DNA of 12,828 bases, taken from the IMG/VR virus record IMGVR_UViG_2623620502_000003, positions 1-12,828 of that record; one strand, given 5' to 3'. The notes beneath the pieces were generated by a model, which was not told the DNA's origin, made no database searches, and was given only the letters and a program-made list of their open reading frames with translations. The stretch's first letter is position 1; the number at the start of each line of letters is the position of its first letter. Positions 4,701 through 12,571 of the stretch are shown here, in pieces. The position numbers were made by a program, and so were the translations under genes. The stretch comes from a virus (Duplodnaviria > Heunggongvirae > Uroviricota > Caudoviricetes).

Positions 4701-4789
4701 ATGGACACACCATCACCGTTAACGCTGCTGGTAACGCGGAAAACACCGTCAAAAACATTGCATTTAACTATATTGTGAGGCTTGCATAA
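1766..4789 (+). CDS. stf: Side tail fibre protein Stf (long, intact form)
   Basis: The N-terminus [37 protein letters not shown] matches lambda Stf as I recall it. The ATG at 1766 is preferred over the in-frame GTG at 1760 used by the ORF track. It contains a long Ala/Ser-rich region, a duplicated GI(V/I)[11 protein letters not shown](S/T)[11 protein letters not shown] motif and C-terminal G-A-H-T/A-H-S repeats, and is followed by tfa with a TAATG overlap. Confidence 0.85.
2140..3120 (+). repeat. Low-complexity Ala/Ser/Thr-rich coding repeats inside stf
   Basis: The translation is dominated by short units such as [14 protein letters not shown] and TSAGQASA. The GC-rich repetitive DNA also produces long spurious ORFs in other frames and on the opposite strand. 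Confidence 0.8.
3166..3375 (+). repeat. Tandem duplication of a ~25-aa fibre motif inside stf
   Basis: Two copies, [28 protein letters not shown] and [28 protein letters not shown], about 130 nt apart; the nucleotide sequences are diverged but clearly related. Confidence 0.75.
4355..4735 (+). repeat. His-containing G-A-H-T-H-S repeats in the Stf C-terminal tip domain
   Basis: At least seven HxH units in the translation (SHTHS, GAHTHS several times, GAHAHT, GSHGHT). Comparable His repeats occur in lambda Stf and T4 distal fibre tips, where they are thought to bind metal. Confidence 0.75.
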
Positions 4790-5373
4790 TGGCATTCAGA
4801 ATGAGTGAACAAGCACGGACCATAAAAATTTATAATCTGCTGGCCGGAACTAATGAATTTATTGGTGAAGGTGACGCATATATTCCGCCTCATACAGGTC
4901 TGCCAGCAAACAGTACCGATATTGCACCGCCAGATATTCCAGCAGGCTTCGTGGCTGTTTTCAACAGTGATGAGGCATCGTGGCATCTTGTTGAAGACCA
5001 TCGGGGTAAAACAGTTTATGACGTGGCATCAGGGGACGCGTTATTTATTTCTGAACTCGGCTCATTACCGGAAAATGTTACCTGGTTATCCCCGGAAGGG
5101 GAGTTTCAGAAGTGGAACGGCACAGCCTGGGTGAAGGATACGGAAGCAGAAAAACTGTTCCGGATCCGGGAGGCGGAAGAAACAAAAAACAGCCTGATGC
5201 AGGTAGCCAGTGAGCATATAGCGCCACTTCAGGATGCTGCAGATCTGGAAATTGCAACGGAGGAAGAAACCTCGTTGCTGGAAGCCTGGAAGAAGTATCG
5301 GGTGTTGCTGAACCGTGTTGATACATCAACTGCACCTGATATTGAGTGGCCAGAAGAACCAGACACCGTGTAA
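4789..5373 (+). CDS. tfa: Tail fibre assembly protein Tfa
   Basis: 194 aa beginning MAFRMSEQ...[34 protein letters not shown], matching lambda Tfa as I recall it. Its ATG overlaps the stf stop (TAATG), consistent with translational coupling. Confidence 0.85.
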
Positions 5374-5375
5374 GC

Positions 5376-5423
5376 AAAAAAGAAAAACCGCAGACACGAC
5401 GTATGCATGACGTGCTGCGGTTT
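5376..5423. terminator. Bidirectional hairpin terminator between tfa and the GIY-YIG gene
   Basis: An A-run (5376-5387) precedes stem CCGCAG (5388-5393), an imperfectly self-complementary interior, stem CTGCGG (5415-5420) and TTT. Read on the minus strand the hairpin is followed by a long U-tract, so it should terminate the minus-strand gene strongly and tfa more weakly. Confidence 0.65.
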
Positions 5424-5442
5424 ATGCTTATCACTTAAAGAC

Positions 5443-6216
5443 TCAAAAATTAGGTGAGTAACGGACCGGGGACATAGCTCCTTTTTTTCTTAATTCATCT
5501 GGTATTTTTTTTCCAAGATAAAGATTTGCTATTTCAGGTGGGGCTTCTCGACCTTCAAAACCATAGCGCGAACTTTGTGTTGCCTCAAAGTCAGGATCCT
5601 CGTCCCAGTATTTCAACGAAGGGAAATTTTCACGTGTTGATTTGAGCCATTTATCAGCAATGAAAACCCCTCGAACGATCCCCCTTACAGTAGCAAGAAT
5701 GATTTCTGCTTGGCTGGCGCGAGAGACATTAATGCGCCAGCTAAATCGAACCGCATCATAAAGCTCTGAATCCTTTGCACTTCTGTTAACGGATATCATT
5801 AATGCTTTATGATGAAATGTTATGGTTTCGGGCTGATATGTTGCTATCAACTCTTTGACATGCGCGGCGCCGAATTCATTGCTGCCAGCACCATTCATGA
5901 TATTCGTTAACCCAGGGTAGGCATCAATAAGTGCTGCTTCAACTTCGTACGCCGTCTTTTCATCAGTCATTCCGTGTCGATGGATGACATGGATAACTTC
6001 AAGTCCTGCTAACCTTATTTCTCTAATTTGCTTTAGCTTGTTGCTCAGTAACTCGTCATCATCAGTCGCTGCCACTTCACCGCGCATATGAGCAAATACG
6101 CGGTTACCTTTGCCTTTCCCTACATAGAAGGTGCTTCCGTCCCTCGGATCAATCAATCGATAAACATACCAGCCAAGGTGTTCAATTACTCCAGAAGGAA
6201 ACTCAGTAATATCCAT
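5443..6216 (-). CDS. GIY-YIG nuclease-domain protein with an unassigned C-terminal domain
   Basis: 257 aa from the ATG at 6216 (MDITEFPSG...); the ORF track's start at 6267 is a TTG with no Shine-Dalgarno. The N-terminus has GIY-YIG-like motifs: [16 protein letters not shown], a candidate catalytic Glu in YEVEAALI, and NIMNG. The C-terminal ~150 aa match nothing I recognise. Confidence 0.6.
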
Positions 6217-6619
6217 TTTGCAATATCTAGGAATTATTTGTGAGACGTATATTAATGAACATTGCAAGGGTTCACAACCAGTAGTATTGAGAAAACCATC
6301 GGAGAAATGAGGCTAATCCTTTGAATTTACATAGTATAAAAAAGATACTTTTCCTCATAATGTGAGCTAATTTTATGTTTCGTTTGATGATTGGACCGGT
6401 CTCGAAAACCGTAGGCACGTAGTATGCGTTAATTTATGAACAAACTACTTGTCTGCTGTTTTTCTGTCATTAGTCGTATATAGAATGATTCTCTATGCCT
6501 AACAAAGCATCACCAGTGCTAGATTACGTTGTAGTCACTGTTTAAATATCCAGATAAAATATTTCCTTCTGGGTTGAATGAGTGATAGAGTTTCACCCAT
6601 TAGACCCGTTGGAGGAATT
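6217..6619. promoter_or_regulatory. AT-rich divergent intergenic region between the GIY-YIG gene and the methyltransferase gene
   Basis: About 400 bp with no ORF above ~15 codons and many -10-like hexamers (TATAAA, TATAGA, TAAAAT). It ends in a GGAGG Shine-Dalgarno (6611-6615) 4 nt before the methyltransferase ATG at 6620. Individual promoters were not mapped. Confidence 0.4.
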
Positions 6620-10708: not shown

Positions 10709-10970
10709 CTAACTAGTTCTTTAATCCAATAGCCTAAGCTCATCATGCAGTTGGATCATAAGACAACGCCCTATAGTGCTCGTGATACTATAGGGCATCT
10801 GACCACACTGTTAACTGGAGTAACGACTATGGCAGGAATACAGCATAACTAAACTCACCCCAAACTTACATAGCGCTTTCTGGCCGTGAGCATAACAAGG
10901 TCCGCTCCTCGCTCATAACAGACATTCACTACAGTTATGGTAGAAGGTATGCATGCTGGGTGGGGAAAGT

Positions 10971-11081
10971 ATGAAGGAAAAGAAGACTGCTGCGCCGTTT
11001 GTCGTCACATTTATCTTCATTGGCTATGCAAGTCGTAATACAAGGTGGGACAAAACTGAGACACATAAGGCCTCGCAATGA
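10971..11081 (+). CDS. Candidate small ORF (36 aa) with a hydrophobic core; hypothetical
   Basis: ATG at 10971 preceded by GGGGAAAG 3 nt upstream; translation MKEKKTAAPFVVTFIFIGYASRNTRWDKTETHKASQ, stop TGA at 11079-11081. Below the ORF-track length cutoff; no homology assessed. Confidence 0.2.
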   Translation: MKEKKTAAPFVVTFIFIGYASRNTRWDKTETHKASQ

Positions 11082-11170
11082 CTTGCAAGGCTTTACATGT
11101 TTTGATGTGGTGGGACGTGTGAGCGCAGTGTTGATGGGGTAATGCTTTGAATTAGAAGCGGATTCTTATA

Positions 11171-11216
11171 ATTCGTAATGCGAAGGTCGTAGGTTCGACT
11201 CCTATTATCGGCACCA
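11171..11216 (+). other. Attachment-site core: 3'-terminal 46 nt of tRNA-Thr(CGU), a partial tRNA rather than a gene
   Basis: ATTCGTAATGCGAAGGTCGTAGGTTCGACTCCTATTATCGGCACCA matches the anticodon loop (anticodon CGT), T-arm (GGTTCGACTCC) and 3' acceptor strand with CCA of the E. coli thrW-type tRNA as I recall it. The upstream 30 nt do not encode a D-arm or 5' acceptor strand. A P4-type integrase gene starts ~165 bp downstream. Confidence 0.75.
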
Positions 11217-11380
11217 TCACCTAGTTTTCCCAAGTCAACCCACATCAACAAAATCATTTAAAAACATATATATTACGTTATTTTCATACGTTTGAGGTCA
11301 ACCCTTGTCTCTTGAAATCAACACGCGGTTGGGGGCACAATCAGGGGCATGTTCTGTTCGGTCTAGGAAATGTGCCCCCA

Positions 11381-12571
11381 ATGATGCTGAATGCCCGCAA
11401 GGTTGAAGCTGCGAAAGGAAAAGAGAAGAGCTACAAGCTGTTTGATGGAGGTGGCCTATACCTTCAGGTCGAACCTAATGGCTCGCGTTACTGGCGTATG
11501 AAATACCGTTTTGCTGGTAAAGAGAAACGATTGTCCTTTGGTGTTTATCCAACAGTCACACTTGCTGATGCCAGACAAAAACGAGAAGACGCGAAGAAAC
11601 TACTCGCAGCAGGTGAAGATCCCGGCGAAGTCAAAAAAGCCAAAAAGCAGGCTTTAAATGCAGCGATTGAGACACTTAACCCATTCAGAGAAGTGGCGTT
11701 AGAGTGGCACAAAATGAAATCACCCAAATGGTCTGAGGGCTATGCTTCCGACATCATTGAGGCATTCGAGAAAGACATTTTCCCGCATATTGGGCACAGA
11801 CCTATAGCTGATATTCAGCCCCTTGAACTGCTTGAAGTTCTGAGGTTGATAGAAGCTCGAGGCGCTATGGAGAAAGCGAAGAAAGTCCGTCAGCGATGCG
11901 GTGAAGTTTTTCGCTATGCCATCGTAACGGGTAGGGCAATCTACAATCCGGCACCGGATCTTGCCAGTGCGATGCAAGGACATGAAGCAGTCCACTATCC
12001 ATTCCTCAAAGCCAACGAACTACCGGAGTTCTTTAATGCCCTTAATTCTTATTCAGGAAGTCCAATTGTATTGTTGGGGGCGCATTTACTTATCCTGACA
12101 GGTCTACGAACTGGAGAACTACGAGCAGGTGAGTGGCGAGAGGTGGATTTTGATAATGCGGTGTGGGAGATCCCAAAAGAACGTATGAAAATGCGTAGGA
12201 GCCATATTGTCCCGTTGTCAAAACAAGCATTATCCCATCTCAAAAGTTTGAAAGAACTAACTGGGAACTACCCGCTGATGTTCCCTGGACGCAACGATCC
12301 TAGCAAATTTATGAGTGAAGCAAGCATTAATCAGGTGTTTAAACGTATTGGATATGCAGGGCGTGTTACGGGGCATGGTTTCAGGCATACGATGAGTACA
12401 ATCCTACATGAGAAAGGATTTAACAGCGCTTGGATTGAAACCCAGCTTGCTCATTCGGACAAAAACTCTATTCGTGGAATTTATAACCATGCCCAATATC
12501 TCGAAGGGAGAAGAGAAATGATGCAATGGTATGCTAATTATTTATCTGAGCTAATTGGTACTCATAAATGA
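11381..12571 (+). CDS. int: Site-specific tyrosine integrase, P4-type
   Basis: The N-terminus has the arm-binding-domain pattern (KLFDGGGLYLQVEPNGSRYWRMKYRFAGKEKRLSFGVYP); the C-terminus has catalytic Arg (LRTGELR), H-x-x-R (GHGFRHT) and Tyr (IRGIYNHAQY). The ATG at 11381 is preferred over the TTG at 11312. It is immediately downstream of a tRNA-derived att core. Confidence 0.9.
   Translation: MMLNARKVEAAKGKEKSYKLFDGGGLYLQVEPNGSRYWRMKYRFAGKEKRLSFGVYPTVTLADARQKREDAKKLLAAGEDPGEVKKAKKQALNAAIETLNPFREVALEWHKMKSPKWSEGYASDIIEAFEKDIFPHIGHRPIADIQPLELLEVLRLIEARGAMEKAKKVRQRCGEVFRYAIVTGRAIYNPAPDLASAMQGHEAVHYPFLKANELPEFFNALNSYSGSPIVLLGAHLLILTGLRTGELRAGEWREVDFDNAVWEIPKERMKMRRSHIVPLSKQALSHLKSLKELTGNYPLMFPGRNDPSKFMSEASINQVFKRIGYAGRVTGHGFRHTMSTILHEKGFNSAWIETQLAHSDKNSIRGIYNHAQYLEGRREMMQWYANYLSELIGTHK

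Follow-up and report, generated by a model that had tools for sequence, protein, structure and literature searches.

Gene content of the window

The window, the whole 12,828-nucleotide stretch analysed here (positions 1 to 12,828 of IMG/VR virus record IMGVR_UViG_2623620502_000003), opens with four lambdoid tail genes on the plus strand. J, lom, stf and tfa all gave strong Pfam matches where the first-pass annotation had placed them; J runs past the left edge and is annotated as 'host specificity protein J' in three related loci (L001–L003). These genes are followed by cargo (5443–11170), a 3' fragment of tRNA-Thr and a P4-type integrase gene, so that each element of the proposed order was found in its place. 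The integrase is indeed read away from the att site, its 5' end facing the core. The features, with the evidence for each, are as follows.

10–1035, plus: J tail tip protein, C-terminal part, lambdoid (Pfam Ig_GpJ_C 8.9e-37, Phage_Tail_Tip 9.7e-34)
1102–1701, plus: lom, Ail/Lom outer-membrane protein (Pfam Ail_Lom 2.5e-120, full length)
1760–4789, plus: stf, side tail fibre (Pfam phage_tail_N 1.4e-71, Phage_fiber_2, Collar)
4789–5373, plus: tfa, tail fibre assembly protein (Pfam Caudo_TAP 3.9e-45)
5443–6267, minus: PD-T4-3-type GIY-YIG protein, prophage cargo (PADLOC PD-T4-3 9.6e-140, full length; Pfam LEM-3_GIY-YIG 2.5e-14)
6578–8053, plus: Dcm-type C5 cytosine methyltransferase, prophage cargo (Pfam DNA_methylase 4.7e-78; NCBIfam PRK10458 927 bits, cut-off 710)
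8088–9302, minus: EcoRII-type type II restriction endonuclease, prophage cargo (Pfam EcoRII-N 4.7e-60, EcoRII-C 1e-71; PADLOC REase_II 3.3e-234)
9509–10712, minus: IS5-family element, ISKpn26-like (99.4% identity with the ISKpn26 copy in L002; NCBIfam transpos_IS5_4 4.8e-110; terminal inverted repeats)
10713–11170, plus: prophage right end, b-region remnant and P arm of a P22/SfV-type attP (matches to L001, lambda, phage 21 and Sf phages)
11171–11217, plus: common core, last 46 nt of thrW (tRNA-Thr) and a T (47/47 identity with intact thrW in L004 and L007; junction comparison of eight loci)
11218–11380, plus: satellite left arm, attL side, upstream of int (same sequence after intact thrW in L007)
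11381–12571, plus: DUF4102/P4-type tyrosine integrase of the satellite (Pfam Arm-DNA-bind_3 9.2e-28, Phage_int_M 4.2e-35, Phage_integrase 1.1e-25)
12568–12751, plus: satellite gene after int, first 61 codons (collinear with L003 to 12751, then divergent; annotated in L003 and L007)
12752–12828, plus: IS1 left end (100% identity with IS1 ends in L001 and L003)

The cargo combines a defence cassette, made up of the PD-T4-3-type gene and an EcoRII-type restriction–modification system, with the IS5-family element. The PD-T4-3-type GIY-YIG gene is a candidate single-gene anti-phage defence, and the RefSeq homologue of its product is 257 aa long. The IS5-family transposase lies at 9660–10640 on the minus strand. 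No target duplication was found around this element (9509–10712), whose flanks read CTAG and CTAA, and a 1.95-kb deletion in the prophage arm is associated with it. At the other end, the final 77 bases of the window are an IS1 end, the window stopping within IS1. The junction with IS1 had zero matches in genome_contigs, metagenome_contigs and viral_contigs, and that with IS5 had zero in viral_contigs. One relative (H4) was rejected as covering the whole window; its right-hand pieces are IS1 only.

A thrW fragment separates two independent arms

The core consists of a 46-nt thrW fragment (11171–11216), corresponding to positions 31–76 of the 76-nt tRNA-Thr, and a T at 11217; its counterpart in the intact thrW copy of L004 lies at 15265–15311. 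ARAGORN found no tRNA gene within the window and Rfam no tRNA at the junction, as would be expected of a 46-nt fragment. The sole Rfam match by E value (mir-365, E 0.58), on the hairpin before int, is a chance match. As a direct repeat of the tRNA 3' end, 11171–11217 separates the lambdoid end from the P4-type int side, and the breakpoints at 11171 and 11217 show the two sides to be independent. Sequence comparison thus identifies each arm and places the breakpoints exactly.

The left arm is a lambdoid prophage end with a P22/SfV-type attachment site

Positions 10709–11219 are 100% identical to another lambdoid prophage end (L001), and 10900–11105 are 90% identical to lambda and phage 21. Both marks of a P22/SfV-type site are present, the 46-nt thrW 3' core and a P arm homologous to the reference phages: the P arm at 11046–11170 runs without a break into the core and a P22-type int in SfIV, SfI, SfV and SfII (97.7–99%). 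We rebuilt an attP in silico by joining window positions 10901–11217 to the int arm of a related prophage (L004). The product is contiguous from 11046 in the same four phages at 97.7–99% identity, at a place annotated as attP in those records, and is ~80% identical to P22. In the window itself, no P' arm and no P22-type int stand directly right of the core; a satellite arm is found instead of TTTAAATCAATAAGTTACAC....

Prophage matches with other right-hand neighbours end at 11217–11219, and several genome matches stop at 11217. Immediately after ...GGCACCAT, the prophage end is followed by at least four different neighbours: the satellite (window and L003), another element (L001), an integrase segment of ~74% DNA identity (L002) and native chromosome (phi458). 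The phi458 record was rejected as a true attP example, being a prophage cut out in silico, which starts with an attL core and closes with an attR core followed by 536 bp of chromosome; we used it as the case in which chromosome directly follows a prophage attR. This GenBank 'phage' record includes chromosomal flank. The far-end integrase in related genomes shares 98.2% DNA identity with the integrase of the phi458 record.

The right arm probably belongs to a P4-like satellite

The integrase carries the domains PF13356, PF22022 and PF00589 in P4-type order, all scoring above their cut-offs; its NCBIfam PRK09692 score of 294.5 bits is under the cut-off of 434. Its reading frame (11312–12571, plus strand) is open from a TTG at 11312. 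The start is probably the ATG at 11381, 164 nt past the core; the product would then have 396 aa, as do the proteins annotated in RefSeq relatives. The translation shows GLRTGE, HGFRHT, LAHSD and RGIY, candidate motifs for the catalytic R-K-H-x-x-R-H-Y residues. All 396 residues (396/396) are identical to WP_000979346.1 of strain CD09 (L007), whose gene adjoins an intact thrW. The closest phage integrases among the matches listed, a list from which P4 is absent, are of the Sf6 and g341c types (48–50%). Next to int, relatives encode a 274-aa hypothetical protein (WP_001023347.1). In the window, IS1 interrupts this gene after 61 codons, cutting the satellite 180 nt past int, and the window ends 257 nt past int.

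Matches to the segment 11120–12751 came from 84 E. coli genomes, of which 60 were listed. In 43 of these 60, the match begins exactly at 11171, and a tRNA-Thr is annotated under 38 of those 43; in 12 of the 60 it extends leftward into the lambdoid arm. The satellite alone at thrW (38/60 listed) is hence commoner than the satellite behind a prophage (12/60 listed). The CD09 locus reads proA, thrW, the identical integrase, Icd-like, DUF927 primase-like, Psu, Ogr/Delta, a variable cassette, an 18-nt core and paoD. Both L003 and L007, 99.8–100% identical to the window over 11171–12751, have Psu, Ogr/Delta, a DUF927/TOPRIM protein and an Icd-like protein annotated. Some relatives carry truncated versions (H132, H143 and H144), and int is missing in H145.

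Tandem arrays in related genomes

One related complete genome, NZ_CM136166.1 (loci L003 and L004), carries the full array: proA, thrW, P22-type int, lambdoid prophage, 47-nt core, P4-type int, satellite, 17–18-nt core and paoD. Intact thrW lies at 15235–15310 of L004, and a 17-nt core with a one-base deletion lies near 40880 of L003. In NZ_CP068041.1, where our comparison covers the array as far as the P4-type int, thrW, P22-type int and the prophage are annotated, with a P4-type int just downstream whose match runs into the lambdoid arm. Both relatives thus have an intact thrW and a P22-type integrase at the far prophage end, where the first-pass annotation had proposed looking for an intact thrW-type tRNA and a second integrase. 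A total of 69 records reach at least 80% coverage, a figure that is not a count of the exact tandem, the integrase segments in some (such as H47) having only ~73% DNA identity.

The window very probably comes from an E. coli-type chromosome, at the thrW hotspot that is bounded by proA and paoD, with a lambdoid prophage and a P4-like satellite in tandem. This reading draws on relatives 97–100% identical across the junction; the far prophage end and the satellite body lie outside the window, whose own flanks presumably resemble those of the relatives. The left-hand element would be a lambdoid prophage with a P22/SfV-type integration module and an attP carrying the last 46 nt of thrW. On integrating, it would restore thrW in full at attL, which lies outside the window at the far end of the prophage, beside a P22-type int, and would leave a displaced 46-nt 3' fragment at attR. 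The right-hand element would be a P4-like satellite, whose own DUF4102-type integrase is predicted to recombine within the last 18 nt (plus T) of thrW; the last 18 nt of the core, with the T, match the satellite's own core. Right of the core stands the satellite arm and not a P22-type P' arm, which argues for attR rather than attP: judged by its two arms, the core is a hybrid, being at once the attR of the lambdoid prophage and the satellite's attL. Both integrases are presumably still active. Which of the two came first cannot be told from the structure, as either order of arrival would yield it.

Alternative explanations

The first-pass annotation had weighed two accounts of the locus and held that the window could not tell them apart. 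That holds for the window alone; it no longer does once public genomes are compared, given the breakpoints and the arrays of the relatives. One account took the stretch for a phage or excised-prophage genome, with attP at 11171–11216 and the P4-type integrase as the phage's own. The order tfa, cargo, att, int does resemble the vegetative lambda order, and the exact junction is present in two IMG/VR viral contigs. The genuine phages Sf6, CUS-3 and g341c carry DUF4102-type integrases (~48–50% identity to that of the window), so integrase type alone is no bar to a phage origin. Phage int genes, however, typically read towards attP, whereas in P4-type islands next to tRNA genes int is usually read away from the core; the integrase here is read away from it, and the Sf6-type phage integrases among the matches lie on the opposite strand. 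The right flank and integrase are also 99–100% identical to an element that, in 38 of the 60 genomes listed, stands alone beside intact thrW, and it is with a P22/SfV-type int arm that the left arm forms its real attP. Among the matches listed from 50,697 phage records, none joins the b arm and core to the window's right flank, the best match stopping at the core end, and no near-full-length match to the integrase in the phage records exceeds 50% identity. In the two IMG/VR contigs, the junction leads into satellite sequence 98–99.5% identical to L003 and L007, which is consistent with provirus calls merging two elements. We consider a phage genome with its own P4-type integrase very unlikely. 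The other account, a chromosomal junction at which a second, tandemly integrated island meets a prophage attR with its int-proximal end, is supported by the comparisons: satellite-only homology starts exactly at 11171 and prophage homology ends at 11217–11219.

Had a draft assembly wrongly joined the lambdoid and satellite ends at the 47-nt thrW core, which is a repeat, the picture would be the same. The core is repeated two or three times at the locus, and the window ends inside an IS1 copy, as is typical of a short-read contig break. Yet the junction recurs at 99.6–99.8% identity (11120–12751) in several assemblies labelled complete (H86–H91 and L003), and sequencing reads are typically longer than a repeat of 47 nt, so that an artefact is hardly credible. 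A variant of the tandem arrangement deserves more weight, although it too is doubtful: the right-hand element could be a mere remnant, its integrase orphaned when IS1 brought about the loss of the satellite. IS1 at 12752 interrupts the gene directly after int, truncated relatives exist (one of them, H145, without int), and the prophage arm shows a deletion of 1.95 kb associated with its IS5-family element. A simple insertion of IS1 into a satellite that resumes on the far side fits equally well, nothing being visible past 12828.

Significance of the arrangement

The tandem prophage–satellite arrangement at thrW is ordinary and already documented, and holds no new biology. Tandem integration of SfI and SfX at thrW has been produced experimentally (PMC3306764), and tandem integration at thrW has been reported in O157:H7 genomes (PMC9997748). 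The locus does call for caution in annotation: tfa, cargo, att and int mimic a vegetative phage map, yet the integrase belongs to the neighbouring element. Provirus callers appear to treat the two elements as one, as in the two IMG/VR contigs that carry the junction. With the boundary placed at 11217, the PD-T4-3 and EcoRII-type defence cargo falls to the lambdoid prophage, whereas the integrase goes with the P4-like satellite. We give very little credence to a functional pairing, in which the satellite would be induced by the lambdoid phage, or packaged with its aid, instead of by a P2-like helper, or the tRNA fragment would be the satellite's preferred landing site.

Comparison with known systems

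The closest parallel is the SfI/SfX tandem of Shigella flexneri (PMC3306764), which shares the target, thrW downstream of proA, and has two serial elements with an att copy between them. The SfI attP/int module is of the same family as that of the window, the rebuilt attP being 98.4% identical to SfI. The SfI/SfX pair, however, consists of two phages with one integrase type, whereas here a P4-like satellite follows the phage; its DUF4102-type integrase is unrelated, and its core is shorter (18 nt plus T). The attP–int module of P22, SfII and SfV has the same core (the last 46 nt of thrW) and P arm, the window differing in being without the int-side P' arm; the virion genes of P22 are unlike the lambda-like J, lom, stf and tfa of the window.

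On the satellite side (PMC8628076, PMC9122126), the window itself holds only int and 61 codons of the next gene, but an identical integrase is found in thrW-borne elements that have Icd-like, DUF927/TOPRIM, Psu and Ogr/Delta proteins annotated, along with a variable defence cassette (Drt3, for example). The gene order of these relatives (int ... alpha, psu, delta, hotspot, attR) departs from that of the canonical P4 prophage. With lambda, the window shares the order J, lom, stf, tfa, accessory region and att, and 90% DNA identity over ~200 nt of the b region. The lambda att corresponds to the gal–bio attB, whereas the att specificity of the window is for thrW and its right-hand integrase is not the prophage's own.

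Gene content of the window

Gene order was derived from six-frame open reading frames (ORFs) and Pfam matches, with PADLOC and NCBIfam calls where indicated.

Protein-coding features of the window (coordinates, strand, identity, basis)
10-1035, +, J C terminus; ORF and Pfam
1102-1701, +, lom; ORF and Pfam
1760-4789, +, stf; ORF and Pfam
4789-5373, +, tfa; ORF and Pfam
5443-6267, -, GIY-YIG protein, PD-T4-3; PADLOC E 9.6e-140, full length
6578-8053, +, Dcm-type C5 methyltransferase; Pfam, PADLOC type II methyltransferase, NCBIfam Dcm subfamily
8088-9302, -, EcoRII-type endonuclease; Pfam, PADLOC type II restriction enzyme
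9660-10640, -, IS5-family transposase; Pfam, NCBIfam IS5
11312-12571 (ATG 11381), +, tyrosine integrase; Arm-DNA-bind_3, Phage_int_M and Phage_integrase

A non-coding stretch separates the transposase from the integrase, and ARAGORN found no complete tRNA in the window. An Rfam match to the IS009 RNA family (5132-5330, + strand; 224.8 bits, gathering score 117) falls entirely inside the tfa coding sequence. Perfect inverted repeats occur within the prophage b-region remnant (10768-10777/10787-10796, 10-nt arms) and before the integrase (11329-11339/11371-11381, 11-nt arms), the latter ending on base 1 of the int start codon (ATG at 11381) and also giving a chance mir-365 Rfam match.

Different elements flank a thrW-derived core

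Window positions 11171-11217 read ATTCGTAATGCGAAGGTCGTAGGTTCGACTCCTATTATCGGCACCA followed by T. They are identical (47/47) to positions 31-76 and the next base of the annotated 76-nt thrW gene in two E. coli chromosomes, bearing out the core coordinates and tRNA-Thr identity proposed in the first-pass annotation. The P22 core is 46 bp within thrW.

We aligned the junction of the window with seven other loci. The left flank, ...TTGAATTAGAAGCGGATTCTTATA, is common to the window, the satellite side of the NZ_CM136166.1 locus (L003), two other genomes with a related lambdoid prophage end (L001 and L002) and the phage phi458 record. These loci part ways after ...GGCACCA, which is followed by TCACCTAGTTTTCCC in the window and L003, TCAAGAAAATC in L001, TTCAAACATATCC in L002 and TTAAAATCAAAGAGTTACCCC in phi458. 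The last is native chromosome, because it also lies 3' of the last att copy in the strain CD09 locus (L007) and in L001, beside paoD. In CD09, intact thrW precedes the window's right flank.

The 11120-12751 segment is present in 84 E. coli genomes, 60 of them listed. The match starts exactly at 11171 in 43 of the 60, with an annotated tRNA-Thr under it in 38 of these 43; it starts at 11169 in three and at 11200 in two, and in 12, none with a tRNA annotated, it continues leftwards into the lambdoid arm. In several genomes, whole-window matches end at 11217. Homology breakpoints at 11171 and 11217 thus bracket the core exactly, the pattern that two independent elements recombining site-specifically at a single site should leave; the left and right sides of the core are different elements. 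In NZ_CP160643.1 and NZ_CM160084.1, the integrase segment begins at a thrW-type core, yet the feature under the match is labelled 'tRNA-Ser'; an annotation error or a hybrid tRNA may explain this.

The lambdoid prophage and its cargo

Window 10709-11219 is 100% identical to the L001 prophage end, and lambda and phage 21, near their own att regions, share 90% identity with 10900-11105. We rebuilt the predicted attP in silico by joining window 10901-11217 to the 400 nt after intact thrW in the other part of the NZ_CM136166.1 locus (L004; int side of a related prophage). From window position 11046, this attP is contiguous at 97.7-99% in the SfIV, SfI, SfV and SfII genomes, where attP is annotated at the matching site; identity to P22 is about 80%. 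The prophage thus combines lambda-like virion genes with a P22/SfV-type integration module directed at thrW. The P arm and core in the window are its attR.

The PADLOC and NCBIfam calls identify the cargo between tfa and att as a defence cassette (PD-T4-3 GIY-YIG and an EcoRII-type restriction-modification pair with a Dcm-subfamily methyltransferase) plus an insertion sequence. The defence block is 98.6-99.4% conserved across the three compared prophages (L001-L003) and, among the matches listed, is also covered in many other E. coli genomes, ST131 strains included. The IS5-family (ISKpn26-like) element (9509-10712) is flanked by CTAG on the left and CTAA on the right, hence no target-site duplication surrounds it, and it stands in place of 1955 bp of L001 (24579-26533), including a 449-aa hypothetical gene. 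Together these suggest an IS-associated deletion or recombination between two IS copies.

The P4-like satellite

Read from ATG 11381, the 396-aa integrase matches WP_000979346.1 of strain CD09 at every residue. Among the matches listed, the best near-full-length phage integrases (Sf6, g341c and CUS-3) are only 48-50% identical. The CD09 order is proA, thrW, int, a 274-aa hypothetical, HTH protein, Icd-like protein, DUF5375, DUF927 protein, Psu, Ogr/Delta, a variable cassette, an 18-nt core (CTCCTATTATCGGCACCA) at the satellite's right end, and paoD; the satellite is about 12.5 kb as annotated.

Satellites at thrW (locus coordinates, content)
L003 28436-40433 and L007 14211-26276: int, HTH protein, Icd-like protein, DUF5375, DUF927/TOPRIM protein, Psu, Ogr/Delta, variable cassette (Drt3a/b in L003; SMEK and DUF2326 proteins in L007), attR

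Judged by the Icd-like, DUF927, Psu and Ogr/Delta genes annotated in these relatives, the right element is a P4-like satellite as described in PMC8628076 and PMC9122126. In the window, IS1 starts at 12752 and the sequence stops inside it (12752-12828), cutting the gene 3' of int (274-aa WP_001023347.1 in relatives) at codon 61. This end would fit a draft-assembly contig break, and the satellite in this copy may be damaged.

A tandem array at thrW

The first-pass annotation had weighed two readings of the core: the attP of a phage or excised prophage, or a prophage attR abutting the int-proximal end of a second, tandemly integrated island. The array predicted by the latter is present in NZ_CM136166.1, which runs proB, proA, thrW, P22-type int (minus strand), lambdoid early and late genes, J, lom, stf, tfa, GIY-YIG, methyltransferase, restriction enzyme, a hypothetical, the 47-nt core, P4-type int, a satellite with Drt3a/b, a short core, a LysR-family fragment and paoD. 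The short core is 17 nt (CTCCTATTATCGCACCA), with one base deleted. In NZ_CP068041.1 the array was followed from thrW to the P4-type int: thrW and P22-type int through the lambdoid prophage are annotated, and immediately downstream is the match to the P4-type int, which extends left into the lambdoid arm. Intact thrW and int at the far prophage end of these chromosomes, an outcome that the first-pass annotation had named as refuting the attP reading, speak against attP, which we rejected given this tandem array and given that no phage record among the matches listed has the b arm and core next to the window's right flank. An attR beside a tandem satellite is thus strongly supported and very probably correct, with the window's own flanks outside the stretch inferred from relatives. 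In this arrangement, a P22/SfV-type int (comparable to L004 15325-16443) next to intact thrW and proA would be found some 35-40 kb to the left, and the IS1 would be followed by the remainder of the 274-aa ORF and the satellite genes, or by a deletion, and then by CTCCTATTATCGGCACCA and TTAAAATCAAAGAGTTACCCC on the paoD side.

The phage attP of tRNA-targeting tyrosine recombinases bears the tRNA 3' portion. Prophage integration would regenerate thrW at attL and shift the original 3' end to attR, and the satellite integrase would exchange strands within the last 18 nt (+T) of thrW. The prophage may have entered intact thrW upstream of a resident satellite, or the satellite may have entered the prophage attR fragment, which contains the whole satellite core; whichever element came first, the structure would be the one observed. 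With its own matched attL/attR pair, each element could in principle be excised independently of the other. The lambdoid attP would read ...GGATTCTTATA[46-nt core]TTTAAATCAATAAGTTACAC... and the satellite attP (satellite right end)[CTCCTATTATCGGCACCA]TCACCTAGTTTTCCCAAG..., and prophage excision would leave intact thrW directly followed by TCACCTAGTTTTCCC in the chromosome. Lambdoid capsids would lack the P4-type int.

Database records and known tandem arrays

The 47-nt thrW core opens the record of 'Escherichia phage phi458' (OP434518.1), which closes with an attR core and 536 bp of chromosome from the LysR-fragment/paoD side; a 411-bp CDS (Orf55) in this flank is annotated 'tail assembly protein'. 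We rejected it as a closed phage genome; it is a prophage extracted in silico together with host flank. The exact 72-nt hybrid junction, followed by a P4-like satellite, recurs in two IMG/VR 'viral contigs' (L008 868-939, from UViG 3300029719_000311; L009 2510-2581, from UViG 2534682338_000012), which look like provirus calls merging a lambdoid prophage end with a neighbouring satellite.

The satellite gene order in L003 and L007 departs from the one that PMC8628076 gives as canonical for the P4 prophage. Tandem arrangements of this kind are well known, and public complete genomes already contain this one. Integration of SfX and then SfI in tandem at thrW was achieved in the laboratory and confirmed by junction sequencing (PMC3306764), and tandem prophages at thrW have been noted in O157:H7 (PMC9997748).
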